IMG/VR virus record: IMGVR_UViG_3300020473_002200
Location: 96,001 to 160,000 of that record
DNA length: 64,000 bases
Reading direction: 5' to 3' (one strand)
From: a virus
In this document: one piece after another, positions 16,745 through 33,374 of the stretch
Numbering within the stretch: position 1 is the first letter of the stretch
Layout of the letters: each line of letters begins with the position of its first letter
Made by a program: the position numbers and the translations under genes
Notes under the pieces: generated by a model
Seen by the model: only the letters and a program-made list of their open reading frames with translations
What the model was told of the DNA's origin: nothing
Databases searched by the model: none

Positions 16745-16756
16745 GGAGAGTAAAAT

Positions 16757-17359: not shown

Positions 17360-17385
17360 ACATAGATTTCTCCATATTTAAAAGC

Positions 17386-17610
17386 ATGGGGAAATATGAT
17401 CATTTAGAGACGCTCCGACAGAAACTTGCTTCTCGAGCAAGGGGTAAGAAGGTTAGCTCTGCTTTGGTTTCTCTTTGGTTGAAGTTTGATGAATGTTTAG
17501 ACAAGTATAAGCCGAGTTGTAAAGAGAATGATGCTGTCATTCGTGAGTTGAGAGAAATTCAGGCTTCAATAAAAGAAACCATAAATGGCGGAGCCGAAGA
17601 TAATGTCTGA
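17386..17610 (+). CDS. hypothetical protein
   Basis: 74 aa ORF on the coding strand, preceded by an ATATTTAA motif. Confidence 0.5.
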   Translation: MGKYDHLETLRQKLASRARGKKVSSALVSLWLKFDECLDKYKPSCKENDAVIRELREIQASIKETINGGAEDNV

Positions 17611-17923
17611 GAACGGATGGGCCGAATACTCAAAACTAGTGCTAAAAGAGTTAGAAACTCTTTCAACAGGAATCGAATCACTTAAGGACGAAGTGCATGA
17701 TCTTAAACAAGATATTGCGCTTTTACGAGACAGGGAAGATAGAGTAACTGAGCTAAGGCAATGGAAAGAAAAAGTTGATGAAGTAGTGTCTCCCACCCAA
17801 CTTCAAACACTGGCTAATGATGTCGAAAGCCTAAAACATTTTAAAACCAAGTCGATCACTATTTTTGCCGTCGCTCAAGCTGCCATGGCAATATTTGCTT
17901 GGGCTATAAATTTTATTAAATAA
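17585..17923 (+). CDS. coiled-coil protein with a C-terminal transmembrane helix
   Basis: Heptad-like stretch, then hydrophobic ITIFAVAQAAMAIFAWAINF. Confidence 0.6.
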   Translation: MAEPKIMSENGWAEYSKLVLKELETLSTGIESLKDEVHDLKQDIALLRDREDRVTELRQWKEKVDEVVSPTQLQTLANDVESLKHFKTKSITIFAVAQAAMAIFAWAINFIK

Positions 17924-17994
17924 TTTTTAAAAAAACTAAAAAAATAGCTATAATTTATTCATGAATCATTATATTTCATGGAGACATTTGACCT

Positions 17995-18801
17995 ATGCCT
18001 GAGGGACCAGAGTGCAGAAAATATGCCCTTTTTTTAGGTGATTATATCGGTGGTGACACACTAGAAAGCATTAATATAGTGTCTGGTAGGTATTCTAAAA
18101 AAGAATTACCAGGCTTAGAGGATTTTAAAAAAAAGCTACCATTACAAATCCAGGGTGTTGGGGTGCATGGTAAATTTATCTATTTCATCTTTCAAGACAA
18201 AAGCAGTCTTTGGTCGACCCTAGGAATGACCGGTGCTTGGGAAAAGTCAAGCTCAAATCACACACGGGTATCTTTAAGATTCTCAAATGGAAAAATAGCG
18301 TATTTCAATGATATGAGAAATTTTGGGACTATTAAGTTTTCTTTTGATCCAAAACAACTGGCAATGAAATTAGCTTCATTTGGCCCGGATATGCTGGCCG
18401 ATGATATTAGTAACGAGGTATTTCTTTCTTCTTTAAGAAAAAAAGACGATCTTAATATAACTAAAGCGCTACTAGATCAAACAGTTGTCGCCGGTGTAGG
18501 GAACTATATAAAGGCAGAGTCTCTTTATCTTGCAAGAATAAGCCCGTTTAGAAAAGTAAGAGACCTATCAGATGCGAATTTAAAAATATTAAATAAATCA
18601 ATAAAATCTGTAATGAGGGAATCGTTTCAAACAGGCGGTACGACGATAAATTCGTATAAAGATTTTTATGGTGAAATTGGTGATAACAATTCTCGTTTTT
18701 TAGTTTATAATCAAGATAGTGATCCAGATGGAAATCCTGTCAAAAAAGAAAAGACACCAGATGGCAGAACAACGCACTGGGTACCAGAAGTTCAGGGGTA
18801 A
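17995..18801 (+). CDS. Fpg/Nei DNA glycosylase, zinc-less finger type
   Basis: N-terminal PEGPE, HGKF, LGMTG, FNDMRNFG, LLDQTVVAGVGNYIKAESL; C-terminal GRTTHWVP with no cysteines. Confidence 0.9.
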   Translation: MPEGPECRKYALFLGDYIGGDTLESINIVSGRYSKKELPGLEDFKKKLPLQIQGVGVHGKFIYFIFQDKSSLWSTLGMTGAWEKSSSNHTRVSLRFSNGKIAYFNDMRNFGTIKFSFDPKQLAMKLASFGPDMLADDISNEVFLSSLRKKDDLNITKALLDQTVVAGVGNYIKAESLYLARISPFRKVRDLSDANLKILNKSIKSVMRESFQTGGTTINSYKDFYGEIGDNNSRFLVYNQDSDPDGNPVKKEKTPDGRTTHWVPEVQG

Positions 18802-18804
18802 AAT

Positions 18805-19038
18805 ATGAAAGAGTTTAATTTTAGCGATGATGTAATCGTCTACATATGCAAGGCGTTGCAAATCGCAATGATTACAGGTACAGATATTGTTGACAACTTA
18901 AGAATGATGAAATTAGTTGAAGGTGAATCAGGTACTCTAGAGGCCACAGAAGAGTTTAAGGCGCAATTTGAATCCAACATAGAAAAGATGATGGAGGAAA
19001 TTGAAAAATCCAACAATTTAGACGAGACACCAGCATAA
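18805..19038 (+). CDS. small acidic hypothetical protein
   Basis: 77 aa, in operon context. Confidence 0.55.
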   Translation: MKEFNFSDDVIVYICKALQIAMITGTDIVDNLRMMKLVEGESGTLEATEEFKAQFESNIEKMMEEIEKSNNLDETPA

Positions 19039-19057
19039 CATTTTAATATTTATCTTT

Positions 19058-19744
19058 GTGAGCTACAAAGAAAAAATAAAGCAAAGACAAATTTTAAGAG
19101 AACTTCGTAAAGCGAAGGCTGAGCTGTCAATGCTTTCATCATATCTGCTAGAATGTGAAGACGCCTTAACTGAATATTCATTAGAGTGGAGCTCTGATTT
19201 AAAGTTTATACTTGAGCACTTGTCACCCAAGACAGAGCCGACCTCCAATGAAAAAGAAGAGAAACAGACCTTAGGCGGAAATTCGTTTCATCATTATAAA
19301 GATGAGAAAAAATTAGACGAAGTAGAATTAAAGCCGAATACGCCAGAGTGGGCCAAGAAAGCATTTCGAAAAATTGCGTTAAAAACACATCCTGACAAAG
19401 TTAGAGATCAGCCGAATGCAAAAGAGCTGGAAGATTTATACGCAAAAGCAAACGAAGCTGTTTTCGAAGAAAACTATGATATGCTTTTAGAAATATGTAA
19501 TCTGTTATCAATAGAAAATAATTTAGATCCAGAATTAGAGCTGAAATATAATGAGAAAAGAAGAACTTCGATTAAAGAAGAACTGCAGAAAATAACAGAG
19601 TCTTTGCCTTGGGTGTGGTGCGAATCATATGACAATCCCGCGATAAGAGAGGGTTTGTTATTATCAGTACTACCACATTATGGCATAAATAATTTAACAA
19701 AAGAAGATGTCTCTGATATCCTGGAAAAGCTTTTATCACGATAA
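19058..19744 (+). CDS. J-domain (DnaJ-like) protein
   Basis: AKKAFRKIALKTHPDKV with the HPD motif, internal position. Confidence 0.7.
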   Translation: MSYKEKIKQRQILRELRKAKAELSMLSSYLLECEDALTEYSLEWSSDLKFILEHLSPKTEPTSNEKEEKQTLGGNSFHHYKDEKKLDEVELKPNTPEWAKKAFRKIALKTHPDKVRDQPNAKELEDLYAKANEAVFEENYDMLLEICNLLSIENNLDPELELKYNEKRRTSIKEELQKITESLPWVWCESYDNPAIREGLLLSVLPHYGINNLTKEDVSDILEKLLSR

Positions 19745-19799
19745 GCTGTAAAATCTCCATTTTTTATTAAAATAAAATTTTAGAAACTAGGAGTGCTAT

Positions 19800-20174
19800 A
19801 TGGCTGATCGGCTAGAGAAGATTTTTAATTTGCGCGGATCCTTTATGAAATTAATCTCAGAAAAAGTTTCAGGAGCATATCCGGAGTGGCCTGTAAATTT
19901 ACAAGACAAAAGATCTCAAAAGGCTTTAAGGGAAATTACATTTCGTAGTGTAGAAGAACTATTCGAGGCCTTATTACATCTCAAGAACTGGAAAGATCAC
20001 AGAGCGTCTAAAGATCAATTTGATCGAGAAGAATATCTTGAGGAAATGATTGACGCATTTAATTACTTTTTGGCTATTTTGGTGTTAACAGGTGTAGATG
20101 CGGATGAATTTTTTGAAGCATATAATCGAAAACATGAGATAATAGTTGATAGATTGTCAGAGATTAAGTCTTAA
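19800..20174 (+). CDS. all-alpha NTP pyrophosphatase (dimeric dUTPase / T4 gp56 dCTPase-like)
   Basis: EELFEAL...KNWKDH...LEEMIDAFNY...FFEAYNRKH acidic helix pattern. Confidence 0.75.
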   Translation: MADRLEKIFNLRGSFMKLISEKVSGAYPEWPVNLQDKRSQKALREITFRSVEELFEALLHLKNWKDHRASKDQFDREEYLEEMIDAFNYFLAILVLTGVDADEFFEAYNRKHEIIVDRLSEIKS

Positions 20175-20179
20175 AAAAA

Positions 20180-20208
20180 CTGAATAATTGCAATAATCCT
20201 ATTATAAT
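20180..20208 (+). promoter_or_regulatory. sigma70-like promoter upstream of dnaE
   Basis: CTGAAT (20180-85), 17 nt spacer, TATAAT (20203-08); same architecture as the 9791 site. Confidence 0.45.
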
Positions 20209-20253
20209 ATTCTTATCATAAATCAGCAATAAGATACAATTATAGGAAAATAA

Positions 20254-23200
20254 ATGATTAAATCTCCTAAGCGATTTACTTCTCTACATGCGCACGATGG
20301 CTTTTCAACTTTTGACGGATTAGGCTATCCCCAGGAACATATAGATTTTGTTCTAGAAAATGGTATGGATAGCTACTGTCTTACAAATCATGGCCATATG
20401 AACTCTTTTGGACATGCTTATTTACATGCGGAAAAAATTCGTAAACGTAACCCAGGTTTTAAATTTATCCCTGGTTGCGAGATGTATGTTCATCCCGATT
20501 TGCAGGTATGGGAATTAGATCGTCAAATTAGACAAGCTGCGAAAAAAGGTGATAAGGATGCCATCGCAGTGCTAAAAGCTCAACGTGAAGCAATAGCGAC
20601 ACCATTGACTGCTGTTGTAGATGGTGATGATGAAATTGTAGATATTACCACCGAAGAAGCCGGCTTGACAGTGGAGAATGAAGAAGAAACAAAGTCTGCG
20701 AAGTTTTATGATCCTATTAAGAGACGTCATCATTTAGTAGTGCTGCCAAAAACCAGTGAAGGACTACAACGATTATTTCACCTTGTTAGTAGGGGCTATA
20801 GGGAGGGGTTTTATCGTTTCCCAAGAGTAGACTATAAAATGCTACAAGAAGCCGCAGAGGGTGGTCACCTAATGGTTTCGACAGCATGTATTGGTGGCCC
20901 AATAGCGTATGAGGTATTTAGACACGCCCAACAAGTTGAGTTTGACGACCTAAGCCATAAGCTGCTTGACGATTCTTCATTTTATGAAAAGGTAATGACC
21001 GGTGTTGGAAATGCTTATCAAGGACTAGTTGATTCTGTCGGTATCAATGATGTAATGCTTGAGCTACAATTTAATAAGCTACCCGCACAGCACCTGGTGA
21101 ATAGAGCGATAATAGAGTTTGCAAATAGCCAGGGTATTACCGATAAATTGGTCGTTACGACTGATTCACATTATGCACGACCAGAGCACTGGCGTGAGCG
21201 TGAGCTTTATAAAAAGCTTGGGTGGCTTAATTATCGTGAGTTTGATCCATCAAAATTACCTCAATCTAAAGAAGACTTAAAGTGTGAGCTTTATCCAAAA
21301 AATGCAGAGCAAGTTTGGGACACATATCTTGAGACGACTGAAGGTATGGATTTTTATAATCACGAAGCCATCCGCGATGCAATAGAAAGACCTCACGATA
21401 TTGTACATCAGGAAATTGGAGAAATCCACCCTGACAGAAGTATGAAGCTACCTTCGTATGTTGTACCTAAGGGTATGACTGACGATAAGGCTCTTTTAGA
21501 AGCATGTAAAAAGGGGCTTATAGCTAGGGGTTTGGCGGATGATCCAAAATACGTTGAAAGAATAAAGCACGAATTAAAAATTATTAAAGACAAGAATTTC
21601 TCTCGCTACTTTTTAACGATGGAAGCTATTATTGAAATTGCTAAAAAGGCAATGCTCGTAGGACCGGGTCGAGGCTCTGCAGCAGGAAGTCTTGTTGCGT
21701 ACGTTCTTAGGTTAACTGATGTTGATCCATTCGAGTATGATCTTATGTTTGGTCGGTTTTTAAATCCATCTCGCGAGGGCGCGCCAGATATCGATACCGA
21801 TGTTGGCGATCGAGATCTACTCATTAATATGATGAAAGACAAGTGGGGTGATGAAAACATCGTTCCAATTTCTAACTACAATACATTTAAGCTTAAGTCT
21901 CTTGTCAAGGATATTTCTCGTTTTTATGGGATTCCATTTAACGAGGTGAATAAGGCTTTGGCTCCTGTTGAGGATGATGTAAAGAAAGCAGTCTTTAAGC
22001 AAGGGACTGACAAAAATCTATTTGTGTTACTTTACGAAGACGCCATCGCTCATTCTAAGACGTTTAGGGAATTCATCGAAAAGTACCCAGAAGTCGCCGA
22101 CCCTATCCAGGTTTTATTTAAGCAAAATAAAGCCTTGGGTCGACATGCAGGTGGCTGTATAGTAGCAGAAGACATTGCTGAAAGAATGCCTCTTATTAAG
22201 GCTCGTGGTGAACTACAGACGCCATGGGCTGAGGGTATGAATTATAAGCATCTTGAAACGTTTGGCTGGATTAAATTTGATCTACTTGGTCTGGAAACTC
22301 TTCGTATAATTCAACGCACAATTGAATTAATTTTGCAGCGTAAGGAAGGAATTGAAAACCCAACATTTGATCAAGTATATGAGTGGTTCAATTCTAATAT
22401 GGATCCTAAAGTTTTAGATATGGATGATCAACATGTCTATGAACATGTCTATGCAAAGGGTCGTTGGGCCGGCATATTTCAGTTGGCAGGTAGAGGTGCT
22501 CAGAATTTATTTAAGAAAGCTAAGCCAAAAAGTATCGTCGATATTGCTACGCTAACTTCGATATATCGTCCAGGTCCCTTAACAGCGAAAGTAGATAAGC
22601 TCTATATAAATGCCAAGAATAATCCGGATGATATTGATTATGGTCACCCTCTTATTAAAGAGGTTTTAGAAGAGACATACGGATTGATTGTGTTCCAGGA
22701 ACAGATTATGAAGTTATGCTCTGTGGTGGCTGGTTTCCCTGAGGAGGAAACAGACACAGTGCGCCGTAATATTATGAAGCGAAAAGCTTCCGAAGCCGCA
22801 GAGTCACTTGCTAAGGCTCGAGCAATTAAAGAGCAATTTGTCGCTGGATCTGTAAAGAATGGTGTTGATAGACAATTAGCTGATGATCTTTACGAAAAGA
22901 TTTTATTCTTCGCAGGTTACGGTTTTAATAAGTCACACGCTGTTTGTTATGCGATTGATTCTTACTACTGTGCTTGGCTACTAACATATTTCGAGGAAGA
23001 GTGGTTGTGCGCCTATCTTGAGTCAATGTCAGGTAATGATAAGAAGCGAGCAAAGGCTTTTTCGGAAGTCAAGGCGCTAGGATACACTATCGTACCTATT
23101 GACATTAACTACGCTACAAAATCGTGGACTATTTTAGAAGGTAAGAAGTTTATGCCTTCATTCCTTTCTTGCAAGGGTGTTGGCGAAGCCGCGATTGATG

Positions 23201-23856
23201 AGATATTGGCCAATAGACCATATTCAGACATTGATGATCTTTTATGGAATGAAGATGGTAAATGGAAGCACTCTAAGTTTAATAAAAGAGCGATGCAAGC
23301 GCTAATCGCGATTAAGGCGTTTGGGTCTATGAAGTGCGTTGGTAAAGATTCAATATTCGAAAGTTATAAGCATATGAATGAAGTTGTAATTGCCAACAAT
23401 ACAGAGGTTAAAAAGTGGACCAAGAAAGATCCAACACGAGGACAAGATGCGTTTAAGCGTATTTTGCTTGAGACTTCTGGGGAGGGTGAGTGGTCTAGAC
23501 ATGAGCAGGTACAAAATAGCGTGGCTCACCTAGGATCTTTTAACGTATCTACGCTAATATCACCAGAAGTGATTCAAAGACTGGACGATAAAGACATTAA
23601 TGTGATTGACGACTACAATGGTGTTGATTTACATTGGTTTCTCGTAATGGATGTGAAAGAAAAGTTGACTAAAAATAAAAAGCCATATCTGCTACTAACT
23701 GTTGCAGGAACCTCGGGCCAGCAATTTAGGATTTTTTGTTGGAGTTGGGATGGAAAGACGGAAATGCCAAAGTATAGTTTGTGTGTTGGTGAGTTGAATA
23801 AAAATGATTATGGATTTCAAACTTCTATGAGAAAAATCAAGGTACTTAAAGTATAA
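20254..23856 (+). CDS. dnaE: DNA polymerase III alpha subunit (family C)
   Basis: PHP motifs LHAHDGFS, TNHG, TTDSHY; GRGSAAGS, PDIDTD, GRHAGG, KFDLLGL, FQEQIM, YGFNKSHA; C-terminal OB fold. Confidence 0.95.
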   Translation: MIKSPKRFTSLHAHDGFSTFDGLGYPQEHIDFVLENGMDSYCLTNHGHMNSFGHAYLHAEKIRKRNPGFKFIPGCEMYVHPDLQVWELDRQIRQAAKKGDKDAIAVLKAQREAIATPLTAVVDGDDEIVDITTEEAGLTVENEEETKSAKFYDPIKRRHHLVVLPKTSEGLQRLFHLVSRGYREGFYRFPRVDYKMLQEAAEGGHLMVSTACIGGPIAYEVFRHAQQVEFDDLSHKLLDDSSFYEKVMTGVGNAYQGLVDSVGINDVMLELQFNKLPAQHLVNRAIIEFANSQGITDKLVVTTDSHYARPEHWRERELYKKLGWLNYREFDPSKLPQSKEDLKCELYPKNAEQVWDTYLETTEGMDFYNHEAIRDAIERPHDIVHQEIGEIHPDRSMKLPSYVVPKGMTDDKALLEACKKGLIARGLADDPKYVERIKHELKIIKDKNFSRYFLTMEAIIEIAKKAMLVGPGRGSAAGSLVAYVLRLTDVDPFEYDLMFGRFLNPSREGAPDIDTDVGDRDLLINMMKDKWGDENIVPISNYNTFKLKSLVKDISRFYGIPFNEVNKALAPVEDDVKKAVFKQGTDKNLFVLLYEDAIAHSKTFREFIEKYPEVADPIQVLFKQNKALGRHAGGCIVAEDIAERMPLIKARGELQTPWAEGMNYKHLETFGWIKFDLLGLETLRIIQRTIELILQRKEGIENPTFDQVYEWFNSNMDPKVLDMDDQHVYEHVYAKGRWAGIFQLAGRGAQNLFKKAKPKSIVDIATLTSIYRPGPLTAKVDKLYINAKNNPDDIDYGHPLIKEVLEETYGLIVFQEQIMKLCSVVAGFPEEETDTVRRNIMKRKASEAAESLAKARAIKEQFVAGSVKNGVDRQLADDLYEKILFFAGYGFNKSHAVCYAIDSYYCAWLLTYFEEEWLCAYLESMSGNDKKRAKAFSEVKALGYTIVPIDINYATKSWTILEGKKFMPSFLSCKGVGEAAIDEILANRPYSDIDDLLWNEDGKWKHSKFNKRAMQALIAIKAFGSMKCVGKDSIFESYKHMNEVVIANNTEVKKWTKKDPTRGQDAFKRILLETSGEGEWSRHEQVQNSVAHLGSFNVSTLISPEVIQRLDDKDINVIDDYNGVDLHWFLVMDVKEKLTKNKKPYLLLTVAGTSGQQFRIFCWSWDGKTEMPKYSLCVGELNKNDYGFQTSMRKIKVLKV

Positions 23857-23862
23857 TAAATT

Positions 23863-24888
23863 ATGAGAAAATTTAAGAATTTTACTGACTGCTATCTATC
23901 TCTAATTAGAGAGGTCTATGACGATTATGAGTATGAATCATCTCCTAGGGGCCAGAAGATAAGAGAAAAACTGGGGGTTTCTTTTACAATAGAGGATCCT
24001 AGACATAGATACCCTTTTGTGTGGGGCAGAAATTTTAGCCCGACATATCTTGCAGCTGAGATGATCTGGTATTTATCTGGTAACAATGCTACAGAGTGGA
24101 TATCAAATTATTCAAAGTTCTGGTCCAATATTAGTGATGATGGAAAGACCGCTAATTCCGCTTATGGCGCTAGGATATTCCACACAAACCCTATTATCGC
24201 GGGAGGAAGGCTAAATCAGTGGGAATTTGTAAAAGGTGAATTAACAAGAGACCCGGATTCGAGAAGGGCAATCATTCATTTAAGGACTCCTGATGATAGT
24301 GTCGATGCAAAGCTGGATGTACCATGTACACTAAGTCTTCAATTCTTCATAAGAGATGCGCAGCTTCATATGATTGTTAATATGAGGAGTTCTGATCTTA
24401 TTTTTGGGATTGCTTATGATATTCCGGCTTTTACTTTTTTTCAAGAGATGCTTGCTCTAGAGCTAGGAGTTGAATTAGGGACTTATACGCACTGCAGTAA
24501 TTCTCTGCACATTTATGAAAGACACTTTAAGATGTGTAGAACAATTTTAACAGATCGAGGAGAACATGAGTCAATAATGGCTTTAGTACGCAATGGGGCT
24601 ATGCCAAAACTCAAGCATACCGACTTTTTGAACGGCAAGAAAGAAGAGTGGTTACAAAAGATCTTAGCATTTGAGAAAAAATTAAGATCATCCAATACAG
24701 AAATTGAATTAGATGAATTATTGCGAAACATATATCAAGGTGAGAATAAAAACATTTGGACAGATTTTGCGAGTCTGCTAGCTTATCATCGAGCAAAGAA
24801 GCTAGGTATCAACAGACAAATTTTAGAAAAGATAGACTTTGATTATTCTGGTTACGAAGTTGATTTAAGGAGAAGAAATGAAGTATGA
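23863..24888 (+). CDS. thymidylate synthase homolog, dCMP hydroxymethylase-type (T4 gp42-like)
   Basis: ANSAYG, DPDSRRAII, catalytic PCT, MRSSDLIFGIAYD. Asp lies exactly 31 residues after the catalytic Cys (Asn177 in E. coli ThyA, Asp179 in T4 gp42). Confidence 0.8.
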   Translation: MRKFKNFTDCYLSLIREVYDDYEYESSPRGQKIREKLGVSFTIEDPRHRYPFVWGRNFSPTYLAAEMIWYLSGNNATEWISNYSKFWSNISDDGKTANSAYGARIFHTNPIIAGGRLNQWEFVKGELTRDPDSRRAIIHLRTPDDSVDAKLDVPCTLSLQFFIRDAQLHMIVNMRSSDLIFGIAYDIPAFTFFQEMLALELGVELGTYTHCSNSLHIYERHFKMCRTILTDRGEHESIMALVRNGAMPKLKHTDFLNGKKEEWLQKILAFEKKLRSSNTEIELDELLRNIYQGENKNIWTDFASLLAYHRAKKLGINRQILEKIDFDYSGYEVDLRRRNEV

Positions 24889-25987
24889 TTATTTAATTGT
24901 GGGTGCCGGTATGTTCGGAGCTACATTCGCTAGAGAAATGTTAGATGCCGGTAAAACTGTTTTGGTATTAGACAAAAGAGAGCATATCGGTGGAAATTGC
25001 TACTCAGAAAGAAGAGAAGGTGTTGATGTTCATGTATACGGGCCTCATATTTTTCACACAAACAATGAAAAAATCTGGAATTTTGTAAATCGATTTGCAA
25101 CGTTCAATCAATATATCAATAAGCCTAAGGTCAATTTCCGTGGAAATATTTACTCATTTCCTATAAATTTAATGACTCTACACCAGCTTTGGGGAGTGAC
25201 AACACCCGCTGAGGCAGAGGCTAAATTACAAGAAGTCAGAATTCCTTGCGAGAACCCACAAAATTTAGAGGAATGGATTTTATCACAAGTTGGTAGAGAA
25301 GTTTATGAGACCTTTATCAAGGGCTATACTATGAAGCAATGGAAGCGGCACCCAAGCGAGTTGCCCGCTTCTATCATTAAACGCTTACCAATTCGTTTAA
25401 TCTTTGAAGAAAACTATTTCTTTGATAAATTCCAGGGTATTCCAAAAAACGGATATACGAAAATGATTGGCAATATGCTTGAAGGCGCAGATGTCCGGAC
25501 AGGCGTTGATTATCTAGAAGATAGAGAAACCTGGGATAGCATGGCCAATAAGACTGTATTTACCGGTAAGATTGACGAGTTTTTTGATTATGAGCATGGC
25601 TATCTAGAGTATAGATCATTACGCTTCGAGCATGAAGTTCACGATGGCGACTTTCAAGGAAACGCAGTCGTAAATTATACTGATTATGAAGTACCTTATA
25701 CTAGGATAGTGGAGCATAAACATTTTCAACCACAAGAGGCTGCGAGTCTTGAAAAGACGATAGTGACGAAAGAGTATCCGCAGGATTGGTCACCAAGTAA
25801 GGTACCGTACTATCCTGTAAATGATAAAAAGAACAGTGAGGTTTTTAAGAAGTATTCTGTTCTTGCTAGAAATAGTGATATAATATTTGGAGGTAGATTA
25901 GCTGAATATCGTTATTACGATATGCACCAAGTAATTGGTTCAGCTTTGCAAAAGGCAAAAAAAGAATTAAGGAATAATGGAGAATAA
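24878..25987 (+). CDS. glf: UDP-galactopyranose mutase
   Basis: FAD motif IVGAGMFG, HIGGNCYS, HVYGPHIFHT, YTRIVEHKHF, GGRLAEYRYYDMHQ. Confidence 0.93.
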   Translation: MKYDYLIVGAGMFGATFAREMLDAGKTVLVLDKREHIGGNCYSERREGVDVHVYGPHIFHTNNEKIWNFVNRFATFNQYINKPKVNFRGNIYSFPINLMTLHQLWGVTTPAEAEAKLQEVRIPCENPQNLEEWILSQVGREVYETFIKGYTMKQWKRHPSELPASIIKRLPIRLIFEENYFFDKFQGIPKNGYTKMIGNMLEGADVRTGVDYLEDRETWDSMANKTVFTGKIDEFFDYEHGYLEYRSLRFEHEVHDGDFQGNAVVNYTDYEVPYTRIVEHKHFQPQEAASLEKTIVTKEYPQDWSPSKVPYYPVNDKKNSEVFKKYSVLARNSDIIFGGRLAEYRYYDMHQVIGSALQKAKKELRNNGE

Positions 25988-27032
25988 TATGAGAGTTCTT
26001 TATAGCTTTTGGGGATTTATTACGCCGCTAGAAAAAAATTCAATGGTAAATACCCCGGATGGTGAGAGAGGTAATCGAGTTGATTTTGTAAGAGAATTAC
26101 AAAGTAGAGATCACACTGTAATTCAGCTTCAGAAAATGAGAGATGAAGAGCAGTTTCCGGGTGTTGAGTACAGCCCGGTTGGTTTTCCAGATGGTGATAT
26201 TGTATATTGCGAATGGCGTTGGCCGACATGGAAAAATTCTGGTAACAATCCTCAAGAATCTGACTATACTAGGCAATGTGAGGTTTTAGATCACTATCAT
26301 GCTGCTGGAGTGCCCATTATTATTCATGACGGCGATCTTAAAATGACAGCTGAAGAAGAACAGCGTTGGCCAAACGCTGTGATTTCCGATGCATGTGTAA
26401 ATCCTCGAATGCTAACTAGGAAAAGAATTTCAATCCCATGGTGCAATTATATGCAGCGTTATTTTTCGCCTGTCGAATATTCTTACAACTATACTTACGT
26501 TGGGAATAATTACGAGAGAGAAAATCAGTTTAAGAAATATTACGTTGACCCCAGCACCCCTCTAAGAGAATCAGGTATTCAGACATATGTTTGTGGTAAT
26601 TGGCTGGCCAGATCTCCAGAAAGAGAAGATCCTGGTGCTAGAATTACGAACGCGCCTAATGTTGCATTTGGTCCACGCCTTGCTTATAAAGATATTTTTT
26701 CTGTTTTGAATTCTTCTATTACGGTAACGCATATTACGAAAGATGACTATACACCTTTTGGAAACATTACGGGAAGGTTTTTCGAAGCTATCAAGAGTGG
26801 GGTACCAGCTTTAATTCCATGGGAATATGAGCACGCTCGCCCTGTTGGTCTTAGTGACGAATCATTAATCGTTAGATCTTCTGAGGATGTTGTTAAAAAG
26901 ACGAAGTGGATATCAACTCTTTCTGCAAACGATAGACTAGGTTTGGTAAATCTGCAGGAAGAGGCATTAAGGACAGTTATTGATCCTCGCCCTGAGGCCC
27001 GCGTCGACCTTTTGGAGCAGCTTTGCGGGTAA
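25977..27032 (+). CDS. GT-B glycosyltransferase resembling T4 DNA beta-glucosyltransferase
   Basis: YTYVGNNYERE vs BGT VIYGGSFRSGQRE; NITGRFFEAIKSG vs FITLRVWETMAS; RLGLVNLQEEAL vs RKEMLSIQHDIL (BGT sequence recalled from memory). Confidence 0.65.
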   Translation: MENNMRVLYSFWGFITPLEKNSMVNTPDGERGNRVDFVRELQSRDHTVIQLQKMRDEEQFPGVEYSPVGFPDGDIVYCEWRWPTWKNSGNNPQESDYTRQCEVLDHYHAAGVPIIIHDGDLKMTAEEEQRWPNAVISDACVNPRMLTRKRISIPWCNYMQRYFSPVEYSYNYTYVGNNYERENQFKKYYVDPSTPLRESGIQTYVCGNWLARSPEREDPGARITNAPNVAFGPRLAYKDIFSVLNSSITVTHITKDDYTPFGNITGRFFEAIKSGVPALIPWEYEHARPVGLSDESLIVRSSEDVVKKTKWISTLSANDRLGLVNLQEEALRTVIDPRPEARVDLLEQLCG

Positions 27033-27036
27033 AGTA

Positions 27037-27564
27037 ATGATTGTAGCTTTTATTGGTCCAGATATGACAGGAAAGTCGAATATAGCTTCTCGACTATCTA
27101 AAGAAATTAACATTCCTGTTTTTAAGAACACAGGCGAATGGAAGGCAGATTTAAGTGGAGATGATTATTATATAAATCTTCTTAAATTTGGTGGTACATT
27201 CTTGATGGACTTCTTGGTACAAACAAATCCATCTGCTATTTTAGATAGATTTTACCCTTGTGAATATGCTTATTCTAATGTGTTTAACCGTAGTTCTAAT
27301 AAGGATTTAATTTTAAAGCTGGATAAAAAGTTTTCTTCTATTAGCGGTAAATTTGTTTTTTGCTATAGAAGTAGCTATGATGGAATTAAAGATGATTTAT
27401 TTCCAGAGAAAATAAATTGTGAAACTCTAAAAAAAATAGAAAGACAATATAGAATATTTTTAGAGGAAACAAAATGTGATATTTTACATTTGGAAACGTC
27501 TGATATGAATCTAGAAAATCAGATTTTTAAAATTAAGAAATTTTTAGGAGTTGATGAAACATGA
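27037..27564 (+). CDS. deoxynucleoside monophosphate kinase (thymidylate kinase-like)
   Basis: P-loop GPDMTGKS, ILDRFYPCEYAY; ATG at 27037 after the upstream stop. Confidence 0.8.
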   Translation: MIVAFIGPDMTGKSNIASRLSKEINIPVFKNTGEWKADLSGDDYYINLLKFGGTFLMDFLVQTNPSAILDRFYPCEYAYSNVFNRSSNKDLILKLDKKFSSISGKFVFCYRSSYDGIKDDLFPEKINCETLKKIERQYRIFLEETKCDILHLETSDMNLENQIFKIKKFLGVDET

Positions 27565-28565
27565 GTAAAAAAGCGTTAGTCACCGGCGGTTGTGGCTTTA
27601 TTGGTTCAAATTTGGCTATTAAATTAGTTGAGCAAGGATGGAGCGTTGACGTTGTTGATGATCTTTCTAGTGGCGATTTAGATGCATTAAAAAATTTAGA
27701 TATCAGGACTGTCACACCTGAGCTTTTAATACAGTATGAAGAGTCTGGAATTATTGAAGATAAGACCCTTGTAATCACTGGGGATTTTGCTAGTCCATAT
27801 GTCCTTTCTAGAATCGCTGATAAAAGATACGATTATGTATTTCACTTAGCTGCACTACCAAGAGTTCAATTTTCTGTAGAGAACCCTGTTTTGACAACAG
27901 ATCAAAATGTTATGAAAACAGTTTCGCTTATGACTGCTTGCATCGAAAATGTAGACAGATTTATTTTTAGTAGTTCATCCTCTGTATACGGAGATGTTTC
28001 TGACAATTTTCCCTCAAGGGAATCTGGTAACTATGAGCCAGCCTCTCCTTACGCATTACAAAAGTTAGTGGTTGAGAATTTTTGTCAATTATTTTTTAAG
28101 CTATATAAGCTTGAGTCTGTTTGCTTGAGGTATTTTAACGTATTTGGGCCTGGTCAGCCTGGAGACAGTCCATATTCAACTGCAGTATCTGCATGGTTGG
28201 ATAAAATTGCCACTAATCAGCCACTTCGAAGTGATGGAGATGGAGAGCAAACTCGTGATATCGTGTATATCGATGATGTTGTTGATGCCAATATAAGGGC
28301 AGCTGAAAGCCCCAAGACAATGAGCGGTAATACATACAATGTAGGCACAGGTGCGACGTATAGCAATAACGAGATCTTGGGTTTACTTAAAAATAAGTTT
28401 GGTGATCTTGAAATTAACCACGCGCCTGAAAGACCTGGCGACGTTAAGCATACAAAGGCAAATATAGCAAAGATTTTTGAAGATCTTGGCTGGAAGCCTA
28501 AGTGGGATTTTGTATCTGGGTTAAATGAAACAATAAAGTGGTGGGGTCTAAAAGAGAACTCCTAA
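27561..28565 (+). CDS. NAD-dependent nucleotide-sugar epimerase/dehydratase (extended SDR)
   Basis: TGGCGFIGS, FHLAA, SSSSVYG, YALQK (YxxxK), RYFNVFGP, RPGDV. Confidence 0.9.
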   Translation: MSKKALVTGGCGFIGSNLAIKLVEQGWSVDVVDDLSSGDLDALKNLDIRTVTPELLIQYEESGIIEDKTLVITGDFASPYVLSRIADKRYDYVFHLAALPRVQFSVENPVLTTDQNVMKTVSLMTACIENVDRFIFSSSSSVYGDVSDNFPSRESGNYEPASPYALQKLVVENFCQLFFKLYKLESVCLRYFNVFGPGQPGDSPYSTAVSAWLDKIATNQPLRSDGDGEQTRDIVYIDDVVDANIRAAESPKTMSGNTYNVGTGATYSNNEILGLLKNKFGDLEINHAPERPGDVKHTKANIAKIFEDLGWKPKWDFVSGLNETIKWWGLKENS

Positions 28566-29164
28566 TGAAAAGAAACCCACGATTTGAAATTTTTACTGGC
28601 CCAATGTTTGGTGGAAAAACGACTCGTCTAATCGCTGCTTTAGATAGATACCAATACCAAAATAAGAGTATTTTACTGTTTAAACCAAAGATTGATAATA
28701 GGTATGATAAAAATTCCGTTGTAACGCATAGCGGCTTGAGCCTATCTTCTAGGACAGTGGGGTTTAGTCGTGTGGAAAATGTGGCAAATGGAGATGAATT
28801 ATTAGAAAGATTCGAGTATCTTAATTCTGGTTGCGATATAGACGTTGTCGCTGTTGACGAGGCATTTATGATTGGGGGATCCGCTAGTGCTCTTAAAGCG
28901 ATTTATAATTTTTTTGGGAAAACAATACTTGTTTCTAGTCTGCAATTATCGTCTTCTGGCGAGTCCTATAAAGAGATATTAGATATTTTACCATGGGCAA
29001 CAAATATTCAAATTTGTCCTGCAGTATGTGCTATTTGTGGCGAAGACGCTTATTTTACACAAAAAATCGCAGGGAATAATGATCCTGGTAAATTGGAGAT
29101 TGGTGGATCTGATTTGTATCAGCCTCGTTGTCATAATCATTTTAATCCACAGGAATTATTGTGA
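28565..29164 (+). CDS. tdk: thymidine kinase
   Basis: GPMFGGKT, FKPKIDNRY, VAVDEAFM, CAICG, IGGSDLYQPRC. Confidence 0.9.
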   Translation: MKRNPRFEIFTGPMFGGKTTRLIAALDRYQYQNKSILLFKPKIDNRYDKNSVVTHSGLSLSSRTVGFSRVENVANGDELLERFEYLNSGCDIDVVAVDEAFMIGGSASALKAIYNFFGKTILVSSLQLSSSGESYKEILDILPWATNIQICPAVCAICGEDAYFTQKIAGNNDPGKLEIGGSDLYQPRCHNHFNPQELL

Positions 29165-29577
29165 ATAAAAGTGCATGGGTTTTAAAGTCTGAAAAAATTG
29201 TAAAAGACTGGGGCCATGAAGTAAGATGGGATTTTGTAACGCAGCAAATATTTGGTAAAAAGCTTTTTATAAAAGAGGGGTTCTCAACAAGGACCAAGTA
29301 TTTTACCAATAAAAGCGAAACTTTTTTTCTAGAAGAAGGAGAGTTAGAAGTAGTTTTCGCTCCAGAATCTTATTTATTGAATAGAGACGTTCAGTTAGTT
29401 ACAAGAAGGGTTTTAGTTAAAGGAGACGTATTTCAAATTCAATCAGGGTGTCCATACACTTTAAAGGCTTTAGCTGATTGTAATATTTATGAAATCAGTT
29501 CATCAGGAAATTCCACTTTTTGTGTTTTAAATGATGAATATTTTAATATGACTGAACAAAGGAATAAAAATGGTTGA
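29161..29577 (+). CDS. cupin-fold protein (sugar-isomerase-like)
   Basis: KDWGHE, KSETFFLEEGELEV, GDVFQIQSGCPY, IYEISS cupin motifs; the usual metal His residues look degenerate. Confidence 0.65.
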   Translation: MNKSAWVLKSEKIVKDWGHEVRWDFVTQQIFGKKLFIKEGFSTRTKYFTNKSETFFLEEGELEVVFAPESYLLNRDVQLVTRRVLVKGDVFQIQSGCPYTLKALADCNIYEISSSGNSTFCVLNDEYFNMTEQRNKNG

Positions 29578-30430
29578 ACCCAACCAAGTGAATTGCGTAA
29601 TCTATCACGCAGATTGTACCGATGGTTTTGGTGCAGCATACGCTGCCTGGAAACAATTGGGTAATAGAGCAGAATATCATGCATGTAGACATGGTCAAAC
29701 CCCTCCAGATGTAAAAGACAAGATTGTTGCGATACTGGATTTTTCATTTGACAATGCCACAACAAAGCAAATGATTGAAGACGCAGAGGGCTTAATTGTT
29801 ATTGATCACCACAAATCTGCAATGGTAGAGCTTCATGATATATCAAATACACATTTCGATATGACTAAATCTGGCGCTATGTTATCGTGGGAATTTTTTC
29901 ATCCTGGTAAAGAACCGCCAAAGTTTGTAAGATATATTATGGATAGAGATCTCTGGACATGGGAGCTTGATTATTCAAAGGAATTTAGCGCTGCTTTTGA
30001 TATGGTACCATTTGAATTTGAGGAATTTGAAAAGTTTGAAGATGACTCAGTATTCGATGATGCAGTTAAGCGTGGTTCATATATCCTCGCATATTCAAAG
30101 ACAGTTGTAAAAAAAGTTTGTGAGAAAGCGGTTGTCCGTTACTTTGAAGATAAAAAGATTATGATAGTAAATGCGTCACACTGGATGTCAGAAATTGGGT
30201 CTAGATTATCTCCCGATTGTGACTTTGCAGTGATCTGGTATTTTGATCATGATATGGGTATTACTAAGGTTAGCTTAAGATCTTTTCATGACAATGTAGA
30301 TGTTAGTGAGTTTGCTAAAAAATTTGGGGGTGGTGGTCATAAGAAGGCCGCCGGCTTTACTCTCCCAATAGATCAGCATATTGACAATTTATTTACTCTA
30401 GAACCAGAAAAAAAGGAAGAATCTTCATAA
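29570..30430 (+). CDS. DHH/DHHA1 phosphoesterase
   Basis: YHADCTDG, ILDFS, IDHH, DRDLW, SLRS, FGGGGHKKAAG. Confidence 0.88.
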   Translation: MVEPNQVNCVIYHADCTDGFGAAYAAWKQLGNRAEYHACRHGQTPPDVKDKIVAILDFSFDNATTKQMIEDAEGLIVIDHHKSAMVELHDISNTHFDMTKSGAMLSWEFFHPGKEPPKFVRYIMDRDLWTWELDYSKEFSAAFDMVPFEFEEFEKFEDDSVFDDAVKRGSYILAYSKTVVKKVCEKAVVRYFEDKKIMIVNASHWMSEIGSRLSPDCDFAVIWYFDHDMGITKVSLRSFHDNVDVSEFAKKFGGGGHKKAAGFTLPIDQHIDNLFTLEPEKKEESS

Positions 30431-31886: not shown

Positions 31887-32318
31887 ATGGAAAATAACCA
31901 CAGACCTTCTTGGGATAGCGTCTGGGCGAATGTAGCAACTGCGATTTCTAAAAGATCATATGATCCACGCTATCAGGTAGGCGCAATCGTCGTAACGTCT
32001 GATAACACTCAGGTATTATCAGTGGGGTATAATGGTAATTACTCTGGTGGTCCCAACGAAGTTGAGTCAGAAGTACCTGGGCAATCTGGTTTTATTCATG
32101 CAGAAATAAACTGTTTGCTTAAGATGGACTATAATAACCCGAAGACTAAAGTAATGTATTTAACTTTAAGCCCTTGTAAGATGTGCGCAAAGGCGATAGT
32201 GAATGCTGGAATATCTGAGCTTGTTTATTTAAACGAATATAGGGATAAAACTGGTTTAGATATTTTACGTGAAGCAGGAATAAAGTGTAGAAAATACTTA
32301 TTTAGTGATGGAGTATAG
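31887..32318 (+). CDS. dCMP deaminase
   Basis: HAEIN and SPCKMC zinc motifs, VGYNG. Confidence 0.9.
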   Translation: MENNHRPSWDSVWANVATAISKRSYDPRYQVGAIVVTSDNTQVLSVGYNGNYSGGPNEVESEVPGQSGFIHAEINCLLKMDYNNPKTKVMYLTLSPCKMCAKAIVNAGISELVYLNEYRDKTGLDILREAGIKCRKYLFSDGV

Positions 32319-32319
32319 C

Positions 32320-32685
32320 ATGAATAAACCTGAAGCTTTTTTAAAGGCTCTTTTATTAAAAGAGTATGAAGACAGACTAAAAACAGTTTCCCTACTAAAG
32401 GAGACTGCAGTAACAGACTCTAAGGGTAGGGTTGTCCTTGATCCTGATTTAAAGGTTCGCCACAAAAGTTCAGGGTTCGAGTATACCATTAAAAAGATTA
32501 AAGATGATAATGGGAATATTTCTATCACTTTAAGAACACCTGACGCCCCTAGGGTGAAGCCCTCTCCTTCTCATACTCACGTAATCGCAGGCCAAGAAGA
32601 AGAGCTAATTTCAATGCCAGATACAGATGATGCTGAATTTGCTATTGATCAAGAAGAATTTGAAAAAGATTACGAGGTTGATTGA
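32320..32685 (+). CDS. hypothetical protein with a leader-like N-terminus (MNKPEAFLKALLLKE)
   Basis: GGAG SD before ATG 32320; ATACTTAT motif upstream. Confidence 0.6.
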   Translation: MNKPEAFLKALLLKEYEDRLKTVSLLKETAVTDSKGRVVLDPDLKVRHKSSGFEYTIKKIKDDNGNISITLRTPDAPRVKPSPSHTHVIAGQEEELISMPDTDDAEFAIDQEEFEKDYEVD

Positions 32686-33374
32686 TGAAAGATTTAAATA
32701 AGAAGATTATGTCTGAAATTAAAAGATCTCTTGGTGACAACTTAGACGAAGCATATGTAACACAGGCTAAGAAATATGAATTGTCAACAGAGCTACTTAG
32801 CGATAAAACAAAAAATAGCCACCAGGAAATTTTAGAAGCGCATGTCGAAAAACTAAATGAGGTTTCGGCATTCTTAGATACTGCCGAAAGAGAACTAGCA
32901 GATATTAATAACTCTAAGCTTCGTTCTCTTAAGGAAGATGAAGTATATAATCTTAATGCTTCATTTTTACATGCGTATTATTTTGAAAATATAGGCGATC
33001 AGCATTCTGTTATTAATATGGATTCTATTGCATTTATGCGATTGGAAAGAGATTTCGGCTCTTTTGATAATTGGCAAAAGGATTTTATAGCATGCGCGCT
33101 AAGCTCTCGAAACGGCTGGGCAATAACTGTTTATAATTTTTTCCTAAATAGATATATGAATATTGTGGTAGATTTGCACAGCAATCATGTTCCATTTGCA
33201 AGTTATCCAGTCATAGTTTTAGATTGTTGGGAACACGCTTATTATAGGGACTATTTGGGAGATAAGAGATCTTATACGTTCGCAATGATGAAAGAACTCA
33301 GGTGGTCTAGGATCGAAGAGCGTATCAAGAAGGTCGAGGCCATGGCAAAAGTTAGTCAAGGAAAAGCGCAATGA
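32685..33374 (+). CDS. Fe/Mn superoxide dismutase with an N-terminal extension
   Basis: DCWEHAYY signature, SHQE and FLHAYY His ligands, DFGSFDNWQKDF, GWA. Confidence 0.85.
   Translation: MKDLNKKIMSEIKRSLGDNLDEAYVTQAKKYELSTELLSDKTKNSHQEILEAHVEKLNEVSAFLDTAERELADINNSKLRSLKEDEVYNLNASFLHAYYFENIGDQHSVINMDSIAFMRLERDFGSFDNWQKDFIACALSSRNGWAITVYNFFLNRYMNIVVDLHSNHVPFASYPVIVLDCWEHAYYRDYLGDKRSYTFAMMKELRWSRIEERIKKVEAMAKVSQGKAQ

Follow-up and report, generated by a model that had tools for sequence, protein, structure and literature searches.

The T-even phages make glucosyl-5-hydroxymethylcytosine (5hmC) DNA by a pathway that in T4 comprises gp56, gp42, gp1, Cd and a beta-glucosyltransferase (BGT). D-arabinofuranosyl-5-hydroxycytosine has been proven in the DNA of phages RB69 and DLP3, and Rhizobium phage RL38J1 carries galactosyl-5-hydroxycytosine (5hoC) DNA in which the base-proximal sugar is galactose; RL38J1 encodes a UDP-galactopyranose mutase (Glf), and a UDP-Galf route was proposed for it (Lee et al., NAR 2026, PMC13326640). 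Thymidylate synthase (TS) products were verified for DLP3, RB69 and RL38J1, as were further arabinosyl transfers for DLP3; the TS homologues of all three carry D169N and make 5hoC with flavin, and the systems use two to three transferases, some encoded far from the TS gene (PMC13326640). An earlier note on the DNA analysed here had proposed galactofuranosylation of a DNA base and held that no such chemistry was described. That statement is out of date, and the novelty claimed was overstated given the furanose proof for RB69 and DLP3 and the Glf proposal for RL38J1.

A coupled gene array next to DnaE

The window (64,000 nucleotides, positions 96,001 to 160,000 of IMG/VR record IMGVR_UViG_3300020473_002200) belongs to a 188-kb record that is ~67% complete, and its source is a large, DnaE-encoding uncultured phage. 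All window genes described below lie on the + strand. A coupled array, with successive gene gaps of -28 to +6 nt, opens with a DnaE-type (Pol III alpha) replicative polymerase (20254..23856; Pfam PHP, DNA_pol3_alpha, finger and HHH_6) and runs to the end of a dCMP deaminase gene at 32318. Six nucleotides after DnaE begin seven translationally coupled genes (23863-29577) for a TS homologue, Glf, a GT-B glycosyltransferase, a YorR-like kinase, a UDP-hexose 4-epimerase, a thymidine kinase and a cupin. Because the gaps are small or negative throughout, this block is part of a longer coupled array. An ORF check of the window found all seven genes (7/7) where the earlier note had placed them, and the order and every enzyme assignment held against Pfam, TIGR and PDB profiles. 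The order is non-random, since 57 IMG/VR loci and one metagenome contig show it too.

Upstream of DnaE, here and in many relatives, lies a MazG/PRA-PH-type NTP pyrophosphatase (19800..20174; Pfam PRA-PH 2.3e-6, 28.3 bits against a cut-off of 21.3), which also matches the nucleotide pyrophosphohydrolase family phrog_12184 (2.4e-13) and gave no match in a single-sequence PDB search. It is a candidate dCTPase for the pool-clearing step. At the other end of the block, the thymidine kinase (28538..29164, likely start ATG 28565; Pfam TK 3.1e-34) had been listed among the genes of the putative operon; the closest Glf+ sister loci (L004-L018) lack it, and it is probably no part of the sugar pathway and serves ordinary nucleotide salvage. 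The small cupin of the type II phosphomannose-isomerase kind (29161..29577) directly follows the epimerase in relatives that lack the thymidine kinase. Five of 11 cupin family members match PF01050 MannoseP_isomer (best 1e-6); the window cupin itself has no such match and has lost a family consensus His (SLKFH to TKYF), and the fold search returned a flat list of cupins topped by the CapF cupin domain (Z 14.5) and PGI/PMI cupins. A DHH/DHHA1 phosphoesterase of the NrnA/RecJ-like type (29570..30430; Pfam DHHA1 1.1e-8, phrog_4771 9.2e-75) travels with the cluster at 55-91% identity in many relatives and probably recycles nucleotides. The dCMP deaminase (31887..32318; Pfam dCMP_cyt_deam_1 7.4e-20), whose downstream position is kept in relatives, would balance pyrimidine pools like T4 Cd.

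Predicted enzymes for a modified base and its sugar

The TS homologue (23863..24888; Pfam Thymidylat_synt 2.8e-31) has MilA CMP hydroxymethylase (1e-47) and T4 gp42 (7e-17) as its best PDB matches. At E. coli ThyA positions it carries W80, D143, C146, T147, S167, D169, G173 and D177, all identical to T4 gp42, so that compared with ThyA-type enzymes (L143D, D169 retained, N177D) the gp42 active-site signature is complete, in agreement with the earlier reading of this gene as dCMP hydroxymethylase-like. The signature is common to all 57 linked TS homologues, of which a few distant members differ slightly. The MilA ribose-specificity positions K133/A176 are R/S here, which is the deoxy type. The proven 5hoC synthases RB69 gp48 and RL38J1_216, unlike the window enzyme, have A80, E143, N169 and V173, and the differences fall at positions 80, 143, 168, 169 and 173. 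We predict that the enzyme is a C5-hydroxymethylase of dCMP yielding 5hm-dCMP, and 5hmC very probably replaces cytosine in the phage DNA. A separate ThyX (161586-162209 of the full record) makes the TS homologue dispensable for dTMP synthesis.

The YorR-like P-loop nucleotide kinase (27037..27564; P-loop GPDMTGKS) matched SPbeta YorR (2axp) in a profile search against PDB (1.1e-6), and hhalign linked it to the remote homologues RB69p045 (95.5% probability) and RL38J1_214 (83%). Its start is the ATG at 27037 rather than a TTG at 26980. This enzyme is our candidate 5hm-dCMP kinase.

Glf (24878..25987), which would convert UDP-Galp to UDP-Galf, is judged from its sequence a bona fide, intact mutase, as the earlier note had it: Pfam GLF (PF03275) matched at 3.8e-76, the TIGR00031 equivalog scored 379 bits against a cut-off of 303.75, E. 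coli Glf (1i8t) matched at 1.5e-131, and 13 of 13 compared E. coli positions, conserved Arg, Tyr, Trp and His among them, were identical. The NAD-dependent UDP-hexose C4-epimerase (27561..28565; Pfam Epimerase of the SDR superfamily, 4.9e-52) is of the WbpP/WbgU/TmGalE type. Its best PDB matches are almost all C4-epimerases (6dnt at 1.4e-54, 6wj9, 4zrm, WbgU, WbpP), the S124/Y149/K153 triad is retained and the TDE dehydratase motif is absent, so the SDR is by homology a C4-epimerase, predicted, as before, to supply UDP-Gal. It scores below the TIGR01179 (GalE) cut-off (160 versus 262), and its gatekeeper at the EcGalE Y299 position is Thr in 14/14 relatives, small as in UDP-GlcNAc epimerases; acetylated hexoses may thus be substrates, and the enzyme possibly supplies UDP-GalNAc as well.

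The glycosyltransferase (25989..27032, alternative start 25977) is a GT-B enzyme with a weak Pfam match to Glyco_trans_1_2; the Pfam BGT model is absent among its Pfam matches. Its family profile gave T4 BGT as the sole credible PDB match (E 3e-4), in the same C-domain register, with R263/E266 aligned on BGT R269/E272 and their equivalents invariant in the family. Consistent with this, the top VIA match of the AF2 model (pLDDT 94) was T4 BGT (Z 23.2, 306 aligned residues, rmsd 3.7), with a lead of only ~1.5 Z over other GT-B enzymes (TarM, PimA, PglA, BshA). Profile and fold comparison thus both place T4 BGT first, which bears out the BGT-like assignment made earlier. A greedy profile alignment, at only 37% probability, set the BGT catalytic D100 on a near-invariant D116 and showed a common WPN motif. 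The transferase adjoins the TS homologue in 54/59 related loci and, where a close copy is present, the kinase in nearly all loci and the epimerase in 43/49. We consider it likely that this predicted DNA glycosyltransferase decorates 5hmC.

The proposed route and its rivals

How might these enzymes act together? On the nucleotide side, (i) the MazG-like pyrophosphatase would remove dCTP, (ii) the TS homologue, as its complete gp42 signature suggests, would turn dCMP into 5hm-dCMP, (iii) the YorR-like kinase and host NDK would raise this to the triphosphate, and (iv) the phage polymerase would build 5hmC DNA. On the sugar side, for which the enzymes are identified and the flux is presumed, the phage C4-epimerase would convert host UDP-Glc to UDP-Galp and Glf would contract its ring to give UDP-Galf. 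After replication, the transferase would place the sugar on the 5-CH2OH of hmC in DNA, and the product would be beta-D-Galf-5hmC if it inverts like BGT. Because the phage encodes both a 4-epimerase and Glf, the predicted donor is UDP-Galf rather than host UDP-Glc. Since the enzyme assignments held and the transferase is locked to the TS homologue, the route from UDP-Glc through UDP-Galp and UDP-Galf to Galf-hmC, as first sketched in the earlier note, stays the best reading; its enzymes stand, and the sugar, which is read from the genes, is galactofuranose with moderate confidence. Like the DNA of T4 and RB69, DNA decorated in this way is expected to withstand restriction and CRISPR nucleases, and the predicted chemistry would be a variant of T4-type DNA camouflage against host nucleases.

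The rival that survives best, although unlikely, is a pyranose hexose (Galp, Glc or GalNAc) on 5hmC, with Glf serving elsewhere; Glf could then deplete or redirect the UDP-Gal of the host, or supply a host galactofuranosyltransferase that, during infection, changes the cell surface. In most relatives the transferase, epimerase and cupin occur but Glf does not, and 29 unique Glf-less loci (a small, very distant transferase branch left out) keep the transferase, most together with the TS homologue, kinase and epimerase. Glf+ transferases are 59-62% identical to these Glf-less sisters. Glf was added in particular lineages and does not belong to the core of the module; the ancestral donor of the transferase family was thus not UDP-Galf, and a donor switch must be assumed. 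Also against Galf, the galactofuranosyltransferases characterised so far are mostly not known as BGT-like GT-B enzymes. Of the gp42-glf-BGT triplet, the pairing of transferase and TS homologue stands and Glf is mostly missing. Moreover, a TS homologue is missing from the neighbourhood of 71 of the 80 nearest IMG/VR Glf loci, so that Glf on viral contigs usually sits in another context. Against a pyranose, however, Glf is inserted inside the operon, coupled on one side to the TS homologue, whose stop its start overlaps by 11 nt, and on the other to the transferase. It was gained beside this transferase family three separate times, in three lineages, with a further gain next to the true BGT of phage ATCCB. 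The mutase equilibrium favours the pyranose, so a mutase without a furanosyl-transferase yields no net flux, and the 188-kb record holds no GT1/GT2 family gene other than this transferase.

Galf on 5hmC might also be indirect: the BGT-like enzyme would add a first pyranose and a second transferase, with its gene in the third of the genome that the record lacks, would add Galf, in parallel with the di- and trisaccharides of RB69, DLP3 and RL38J1. With the record ~67% complete a further transferase could exist, and known systems use more than one, at times distantly encoded; still, none was found in the 188 kb, and Glf directly adjoins the transferase in all three lineages, which makes a mixed glycan improbable. 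We give even less weight to transferase, Glf and epimerase acting on a virion protein or the host envelope and merely being located in the replication module. GT-B enzymes for teichoic acid, lipids and small molecules do come within 1.5 Z of BGT, and the Pfam match is a generic one. Yet the transferase is near-obligately linked to an hmC-type TS homologue and a nucleotide kinase down to 22-40% identity, a DNA glucosyltransferase is its one sequence relative of solved structure, and in T4 itself b-gt adjoins gene 42.

A different furanose is very improbable, be it GalfNAc, by UDP-GlcNAc 4-epimerisation and an UNGM-like mutase, or L-Araf from UDP-L-Arap, the alternative raised earlier. The best solved relatives of the epimerase are UDP-GlcNAc 4-epimerases, with its small Thr gatekeeper in keeping, and E. 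coli-type Glf has been reported to accept UDP-L-Arap. But the window Glf, like E. coli Glf, has His and Lys at Arg59 and Arg168 of the GalNAc-accepting C. jejuni UNGM, residues that we take to set this acceptance, and the 188-kb record contains neither UDP-xylose or arabinose genes nor a UDP-Glc dehydrogenase, UDP-xylose synthase, nucleotidyltransferase, NTP-transferase or second SDR, so Araf-hmC is left unsupported. Least credible of all is a TS product other than 5hm-dCMP (5-hydroxycytosine as in RB69, 5-methyl-dCMP, 5hm-dUMP or plain dTMP): MilA also tops the list for 5hoC synthases and the TS family has given surprises before, but D169 is retained where all tested 5hoC synthases have N169, D177 rules out dUMP as substrate, D143 stands in place of the Leu that excludes water in methylating enzymes, and ThyX supplies dTMP.

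Comparison with known systems

Bacterial envelope pathways such as the E. coli K-12 O16 rfb cluster (glf-wbbI) share with the window a very similar Glf and the pairing of epimerase with mutase. Their acceptor is a lipid-linked glycan, whereas DNA is predicted here; the window has no WbbI/GlfT-type galactofuranosyltransferase, and its genes form part of a phage operon for nucleotide metabolism. An independent parallel is the cultured Lactobacillus phage ATCCB (GenBank MK504445), a siphovirus of 80 kb with a Gram-positive host, in which genes 0045-0047 encode in a row a TS homologue with the hmC signature, a true homologue of BGT (31% identity, 5e-49) and Glf. This trio is known from genes alone and is not discussed in the paper describing the phage. 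The ATCCB transferase is not alignable to the window family by hhalign, and ATCCB, unlike the window, has no adjacent epimerase or YorR-like kinase.

With T4 the locus shares the hydroxymethylase signature, a transferase for which BGT is both the sole sequence relative of solved structure and the best fold match, the placement of this transferase near the hydroxymethylase gene, an NTP pyrophosphatase and a dCMP deaminase. It differs in that its transferase is related to BGT only remotely, the enzymes for the donor sugar (4-epimerase and Glf) are phage-encoded, the kinase is YorR-like rather than gp1-like, the polymerase is DnaE-type rather than PolB, and the TS homologue is MilA-like in length (341 aa) with a C-terminal extension.

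The order of TS homologue, first (base-proximal) transferase and YorR-like kinase is that of DLP3, RB69 and RL38J1 (Table 1 in PMC13326640), whose transferases have no detectable similarity to the window enzyme. In contrast to those systems the window TS homologue keeps D169 and the folate-type gp42 signature, suggesting that the acceptor is CH2OH and not the OH of 5hoC. The RL38J1 Glf lies ~60 kb from its TS cluster, whereas the window Glf lies inside the operon together with an epimerase. RB69 and DLP3 provide the precedent of a furanose, D-Araf, proven on a cytosine C5 substituent, where Galf is predicted in the window.

A coupled gene array for probable cytosine modification

The block at 23863–29577 holds seven plus-strand genes, as the earlier note had described: a thymidylate-synthase (TS) homologue (23863–24888), a UDP-galactopyranose mutase (Glf, 24878–25987), a GT-B glycosyltransferase (25989–27032), a YorR-like kinase (27037–27564), an SDR of epimerase type (27561–28565), a thymidine kinase (TK) and a cupin (29161–29577). 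Two gene starts were corrected: the kinase begins at ATG 27037 in place of TTG 26980 and encodes 175 aa with the P-loop GPDMTGKS, and the transferase begins at 25989 in its database form (347 aa). The block lies within a larger coupled array, bounded by DnaE (20254) and a dCMP deaminase (ending at 32318), with intergenic spacings of −28 to +6 nt. A promoter and terminator scan found no convincing plus-strand terminator within the block, and the count of promoter-like sites (65 against 55.5 expected) was uninformative. We consider it well supported, and likely, that this array encodes a glycosyl-5-hydroxymethylcytosine (5hmC) DNA modification module.

The IMG/VR record that carries the array is 188 kb long and approximately 67% complete, the window being its bases 96001–160000. 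The long ORFs of the record all share one strand and its GC content is uniform; no host-like flank was seen in it although IMG/VR labels it a provirus. Upstream of the window, record positions 14330–29890 are spanned by one uninterrupted reading frame of 5187 aa. A collection of 50,697 phage records yielded no match either to the whole block in Megablast or to the transferase in tblastn. By sequence, the window's clade appears to be without a cultured close relative.

A MazG-like pyrophosphatase upstream of the block and the dCMP deaminase downstream complete a T4-like pool-management set. The MazG-like protein, which had no PDB match in a single-sequence search, is a candidate dCTPase. Just upstream of its gene, a plus-strand gene at 19058–19744 (228 aa) has weak DnaJ (4.5e-5) and WbqC-like (1.8e-4) matches. 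Just upstream of the modification array, 17995–18801 (plus strand) encodes a complete Fpg/Nei-type DNA glycosylase with three Pfam domains, a curious presence in a phage expected to carry non-canonical cytosines. Beyond the cluster, a few genes farther downstream, 32682–33374 (plus strand) encodes an Fe/Mn superoxide dismutase that is kept in most relatives at 43–82% identity.

The predicted modified base and the nucleotide enzymes

Which base does the TS homologue produce? Its best PDB match is the CMP hydroxymethylase MilA (1e-47), and T4 gp42 matches at 7e-17. We aligned it by MAFFT with E. coli ThyA, T4 gp42 and two experimentally verified 5-hydroxy-dCMP synthases, RB69 gp48 and RL38J1_216, and compared residues in E. 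coli numbering. Catalytic C146 and the phosphate-binding residues R126, R127, R166 and S167 are all present. Several specificity positions could then be read: (i) Asn177 has become Asp in the window protein as well as in each of the 57 linked homologues, and N177D selects cytosine rather than uracil as substrate (Lee et al., PMC13326640); (ii) the window protein and essentially all 57 linked homologues show the gp42 pattern of W80, D143, C146, T147, S167, D169, G173 and D177, and an acidic residue at 143 accompanies non-methyl products, water being admitted so that hydroxymethyl rather than methyl is formed (PMC13326640); and (iii) the positions of MilA K133 and A176, the pair that makes MilA prefer ribo-CMP (PMC5175136), are Arg and Ser in an alignment to MilA, which is the deoxy type. 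A separate flavin-dependent ThyX (PF02511, 5.7e-51) is encoded at record positions 161586–162209, 1.6 kb beyond the 3′ end of the window, and the TS homologue is therefore not needed for dTMP. Together, these signatures point to a dCMP hydroxymethylase of the T4 gp42 type, which would form 5hm-dCMP out of dCMP and methylene-THF.

A 5-hydroxy-dCMP synthase of the RB69 gp48/DLP3 gp80/RL38J1_216 type, whose product leads to 5-hydroxycytosine (5hoC), was rejected. RB69 gp48 and RL38J1_216 carry A80, E143, Q168, N169 and V173, and D169N is diagnostic of 5hoC synthases in every tested enzyme (PMC13326640), whereas D169 is kept in the window and all relatives, as are W80, S168 and G173. At 341 aa, the TS homologue is also longer than T4 gp42 (246 aa), the extra part being residues ~250–341; a comparable C-terminal extension may be present in MilA-length proteins and Bacillus phage G gp319, whose lengths are similar.

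The kinase, which starts 4 nt past the transferase stop, matches SPbeta YorR (2axp) at 1.1e-6. In hhalign its probability is 95.5% with RB69 gp45 (RB69p045) and 83% with RL38J1 gp214 (RL38J1_214), as remote homologues. The TK, which the nearest sister loci lack, is ordinary salvage.

The cupin is harder to place. PF01050, the type II phosphomannose isomerase cupin model, is matched by five of 11 family members (best 1e-6). The cupin of the window has diverged much further: it has lost the His that the family conserves, and its matches are weak and limited to generic cupin models. A profile search of the PDB likewise returned generic cupins only, and a fold search gave a flat list headed by the cupin domain of S. 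aureus CapF (Z 14.5). In relatives that lack the TK (for example L004:9573–10993), the cupin directly follows the SDR with a 4-nt overlap, an arrangement that recalls the SDR-plus-cupin domain pair of CapF. A CapF mimic, with the two proteins acting as reductase and C3-epimerase, gained no support since the SDR fits C4-epimerases far better than a CapF/WbcJ-type reductase (5e-47 versus 6e-8).

The transferase and its proposed sugar donor

Glf scores above the equivalog threshold (TIGR00031, 379.3 bits, cut-off 303.75; PF03275, 255.8 bits) and matches E. coli Glf at 1.5e-131. The N-terminal FAD-binding motif GxGxxG is present as IVGAGMFGA, and all compared positions of E. coli Glf, including conserved active-site residues, are identical in the window protein (among them H56, H59, Y151, W156, R170, Y181, R278, Y311, R340 and Y346). 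Across eight aligned phage Glf proteins, the active-site columns, including both Arg, are invariant or conservatively kept. The UDP-N-acetylgalactopyranose mutase (UNGM) subtype of C. jejuni was rejected: at Arg59 and Arg168, which we take to have a role in the acceptance of GalNAc by that enzyme, the window protein has His and Lys, as does E. coli Glf.

The SDR has as its best solved relatives almost exclusively C4-epimerases, of both UDP-GlcNAc and UDP-hexose types. Its catalytic triad (S124, Y149, K153) is kept, and S124 is followed by SS or SA, not by DE, so that no dehydratase motif is present. It falls below the GalE equivalog threshold (TIGR01179, 160.3 bits, cut-off 262.3), with a tie between GalE and TviC, and has Thr at the position of the bulky E. 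coli GalE gatekeeper Y299; the gatekeeper concept is that of PMC3792076. Judged by these features it is an epimerase, although not a certified GalE. It should make UDP-Gal, and UDP-GalNAc may also be a product.

What does the transferase resemble? A Pfam-A scan (E ≤ 0.01) gave no match to the BGT (T4 DNA beta-glucosyltransferase) model and returned only PF13524 Glyco_trans_1_2 (1.6e-4, below cut-off). The protein's family comprises 136 metagenomic members, many of them encoded on contigs 100–290 kb long. When a profile of 43 members was searched against 177,635 solved sequences, the sole credible relative was T4 BGT (E 3e-4), and hhalign of the family against BGT gave E 4e-4. The two are of equal length and in matching register: residues 227–331 align on BGT 234–337, and R263 and E266, invariant in the family, correspond to the UDP-binding R269 and E272 of BGT. 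The earlier note had called the enzyme BGT-like and proposed a structural comparison with T4 BGT. For a confident AlphaFold model (pLDDT 94), the highest-ranking match by VIA was T4 BGT (Z 23.2, rmsd 3.7, 306 of 351 residues), and BGT also had the best Foldseek TM-score (0.67), with similar E-values across matches. TarM, PimA, PglA and BshA follow at Z 21.4–21.8. In a greedy hhalign, the catalytic D100 of BGT paired with D116, a near-invariant residue within a DGDLKMT motif, with an alignment probability of only 37%. Because BGT leads the profile and fold searches while other GT-B enzymes lie within ~1.5 Z and D100 is placed at that probability, 'BGT-like' is fair and BGT-family membership is uncertified.

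No NTP-transferase (nucleotidyltransferase), GT1, GT2 or second SDR was found elsewhere in the 188-kb record. With no other GT1 or GT2 gene there, the BGT-like enzyme is the only visible consumer of UDP-galactofuranose. Galactofuranose (Galf) is our best reading of the sugar, unproven and somewhat favored over its alternatives. That the BGT-like GT-B transferase itself uses UDP-Galf to form beta-D-galactofuranosyl-5-hydroxymethylcytosine we hold at even odds. To our knowledge, this nucleobase has never been demonstrated chemically in DNA.

Repeated gain of Glf and comparison with known systems

The main rival reading is a pyranose sugar on 5hmC, as is presumably used by relatives that lack Glf. 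Between the Glf-bearing clade and its sisters without Glf, transferase identity is ~60%. The earlier note had suggested a synteny survey; ours covered, for the transferase family, 57 loci from IMG/VR and a 258-kb metagenome contig. The TS homologue accompanies the transferase in 54 of 59 loci, and it is this genomic context that makes 5hmC in duplex DNA the predicted acceptor. Where the transferase reaches 38% identity or more, almost every locus also has the YorR-like kinase, and 43 of 49 have the epimerase, five of the six exceptions being truncated by the contig end. Glf occurs in only 20 loci (13 of 44 unique transferases). The Glf-bearing transferases form three groups, namely the window-containing clade of 11 (SH-aLRT 98), L045 and L051/L052, and Glf directly adjoins the transferase in each. 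The clade of 11 is nested among lineages without Glf, and a quick IQ-TREE tree needs at least three state changes. Thus, the conserved core consists of the TS homologue, transferase, kinase and epimerase, with Glf as a repeated add-on. A cupin and a DHH phosphoesterase often accompany this core. In one locus without Glf (L001:1–5291, ENA contig k141_300373, 258 kb), the DnaE gene is split over several ORFs with Intein_splicing matches and looks intein-invaded, or else looks like a split Pol III alpha.

A survey of IMG/VR Glf loci found a TS homologue within 7 kb in nine of the 80 closest, all nine from the window's own clade. In the other 71 (L082–L152), which serve as a control, that 7-kb neighborhood contains no TS homologue. 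Viral Glf by itself does not predict DNA modification, and the linkage of Glf to the TS homologue in the window's array is specific, not shared by viral Glf at large. Many of the 71 have only a distant SDR nearby, and they resemble cargo genes for envelope polysaccharides or host DNA assigned to viruses by binning error.

Whether a given restriction, CRISPR or type IV system can cut a phage depends on the sugar coat of its cytosines, and the enzymes that build such coats serve 5hmC mapping. The hmC branch so far comprises glucose, gentiobiose and diverse pyranosyl glycans. If the galactofuranose reading is true, a furanosyl-hexose on 5hmC would be a new sugar chemistry in this branch, and the transferase would rank as a galactofuranosyltransferase of GT-B/BGT type that acts on DNA. 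In that case, sister loci with and without Glf would offer a natural experiment: a DNA glycosyltransferase whose donor changed from a pyranosyl to a furanosyl nucleotide sugar on three or more independent occasions.

How does the array compare with known systems? In T4, b-gt adjoins gene 42. In DLP3, RB69 and RL38J1, the order of TS, base-proximal transferase and YorR-like kinase is that of the window. D-arabinofuranosyl-5-hydroxycytosine is proven in RB69 and DLP3 (Lee et al., NAR 2026; bioRxiv 2025; PMC13326640), and the base-proximal sugar of RL38J1 is galactose, with its own Glf proposed as the source of UDP-Galf (PMC13326640). The statement in the earlier note that no such base had been described is consequently out of date, and the idea has precedents in proven furanosylated 5hoC and proposed Glf-fed galactosylation. 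For 5hmC itself, we found no report of galactofuranose or galactose in the open literature on hmC glycans. No usable similarity emerged from hhalign of the transferase family against RL38J1_215, ATCCB_0046 or the gene beside Glf in Aeromonas phage Aes508, and T4 BGT gave no BLASTP match to the Aes508 gene.

The cultured Lactobacillus phage ATCCB carries three consecutive genes (L068:5337–8392; MK504445 34336–37391) for a TS homologue with the hmC signature, a true BGT homologue (31% identity to BGT, 5e-49) and Glf; the paper describing the phage is silent on all three. The conserved core, the threefold gain of Glf and this cultured triad make testable comparative material. ATCCB is a ready experimental proxy, and the galactofuranose reading can be tested in vitro or in that phage, where TS homologue, BGT homologue and Glf already stand side by side.
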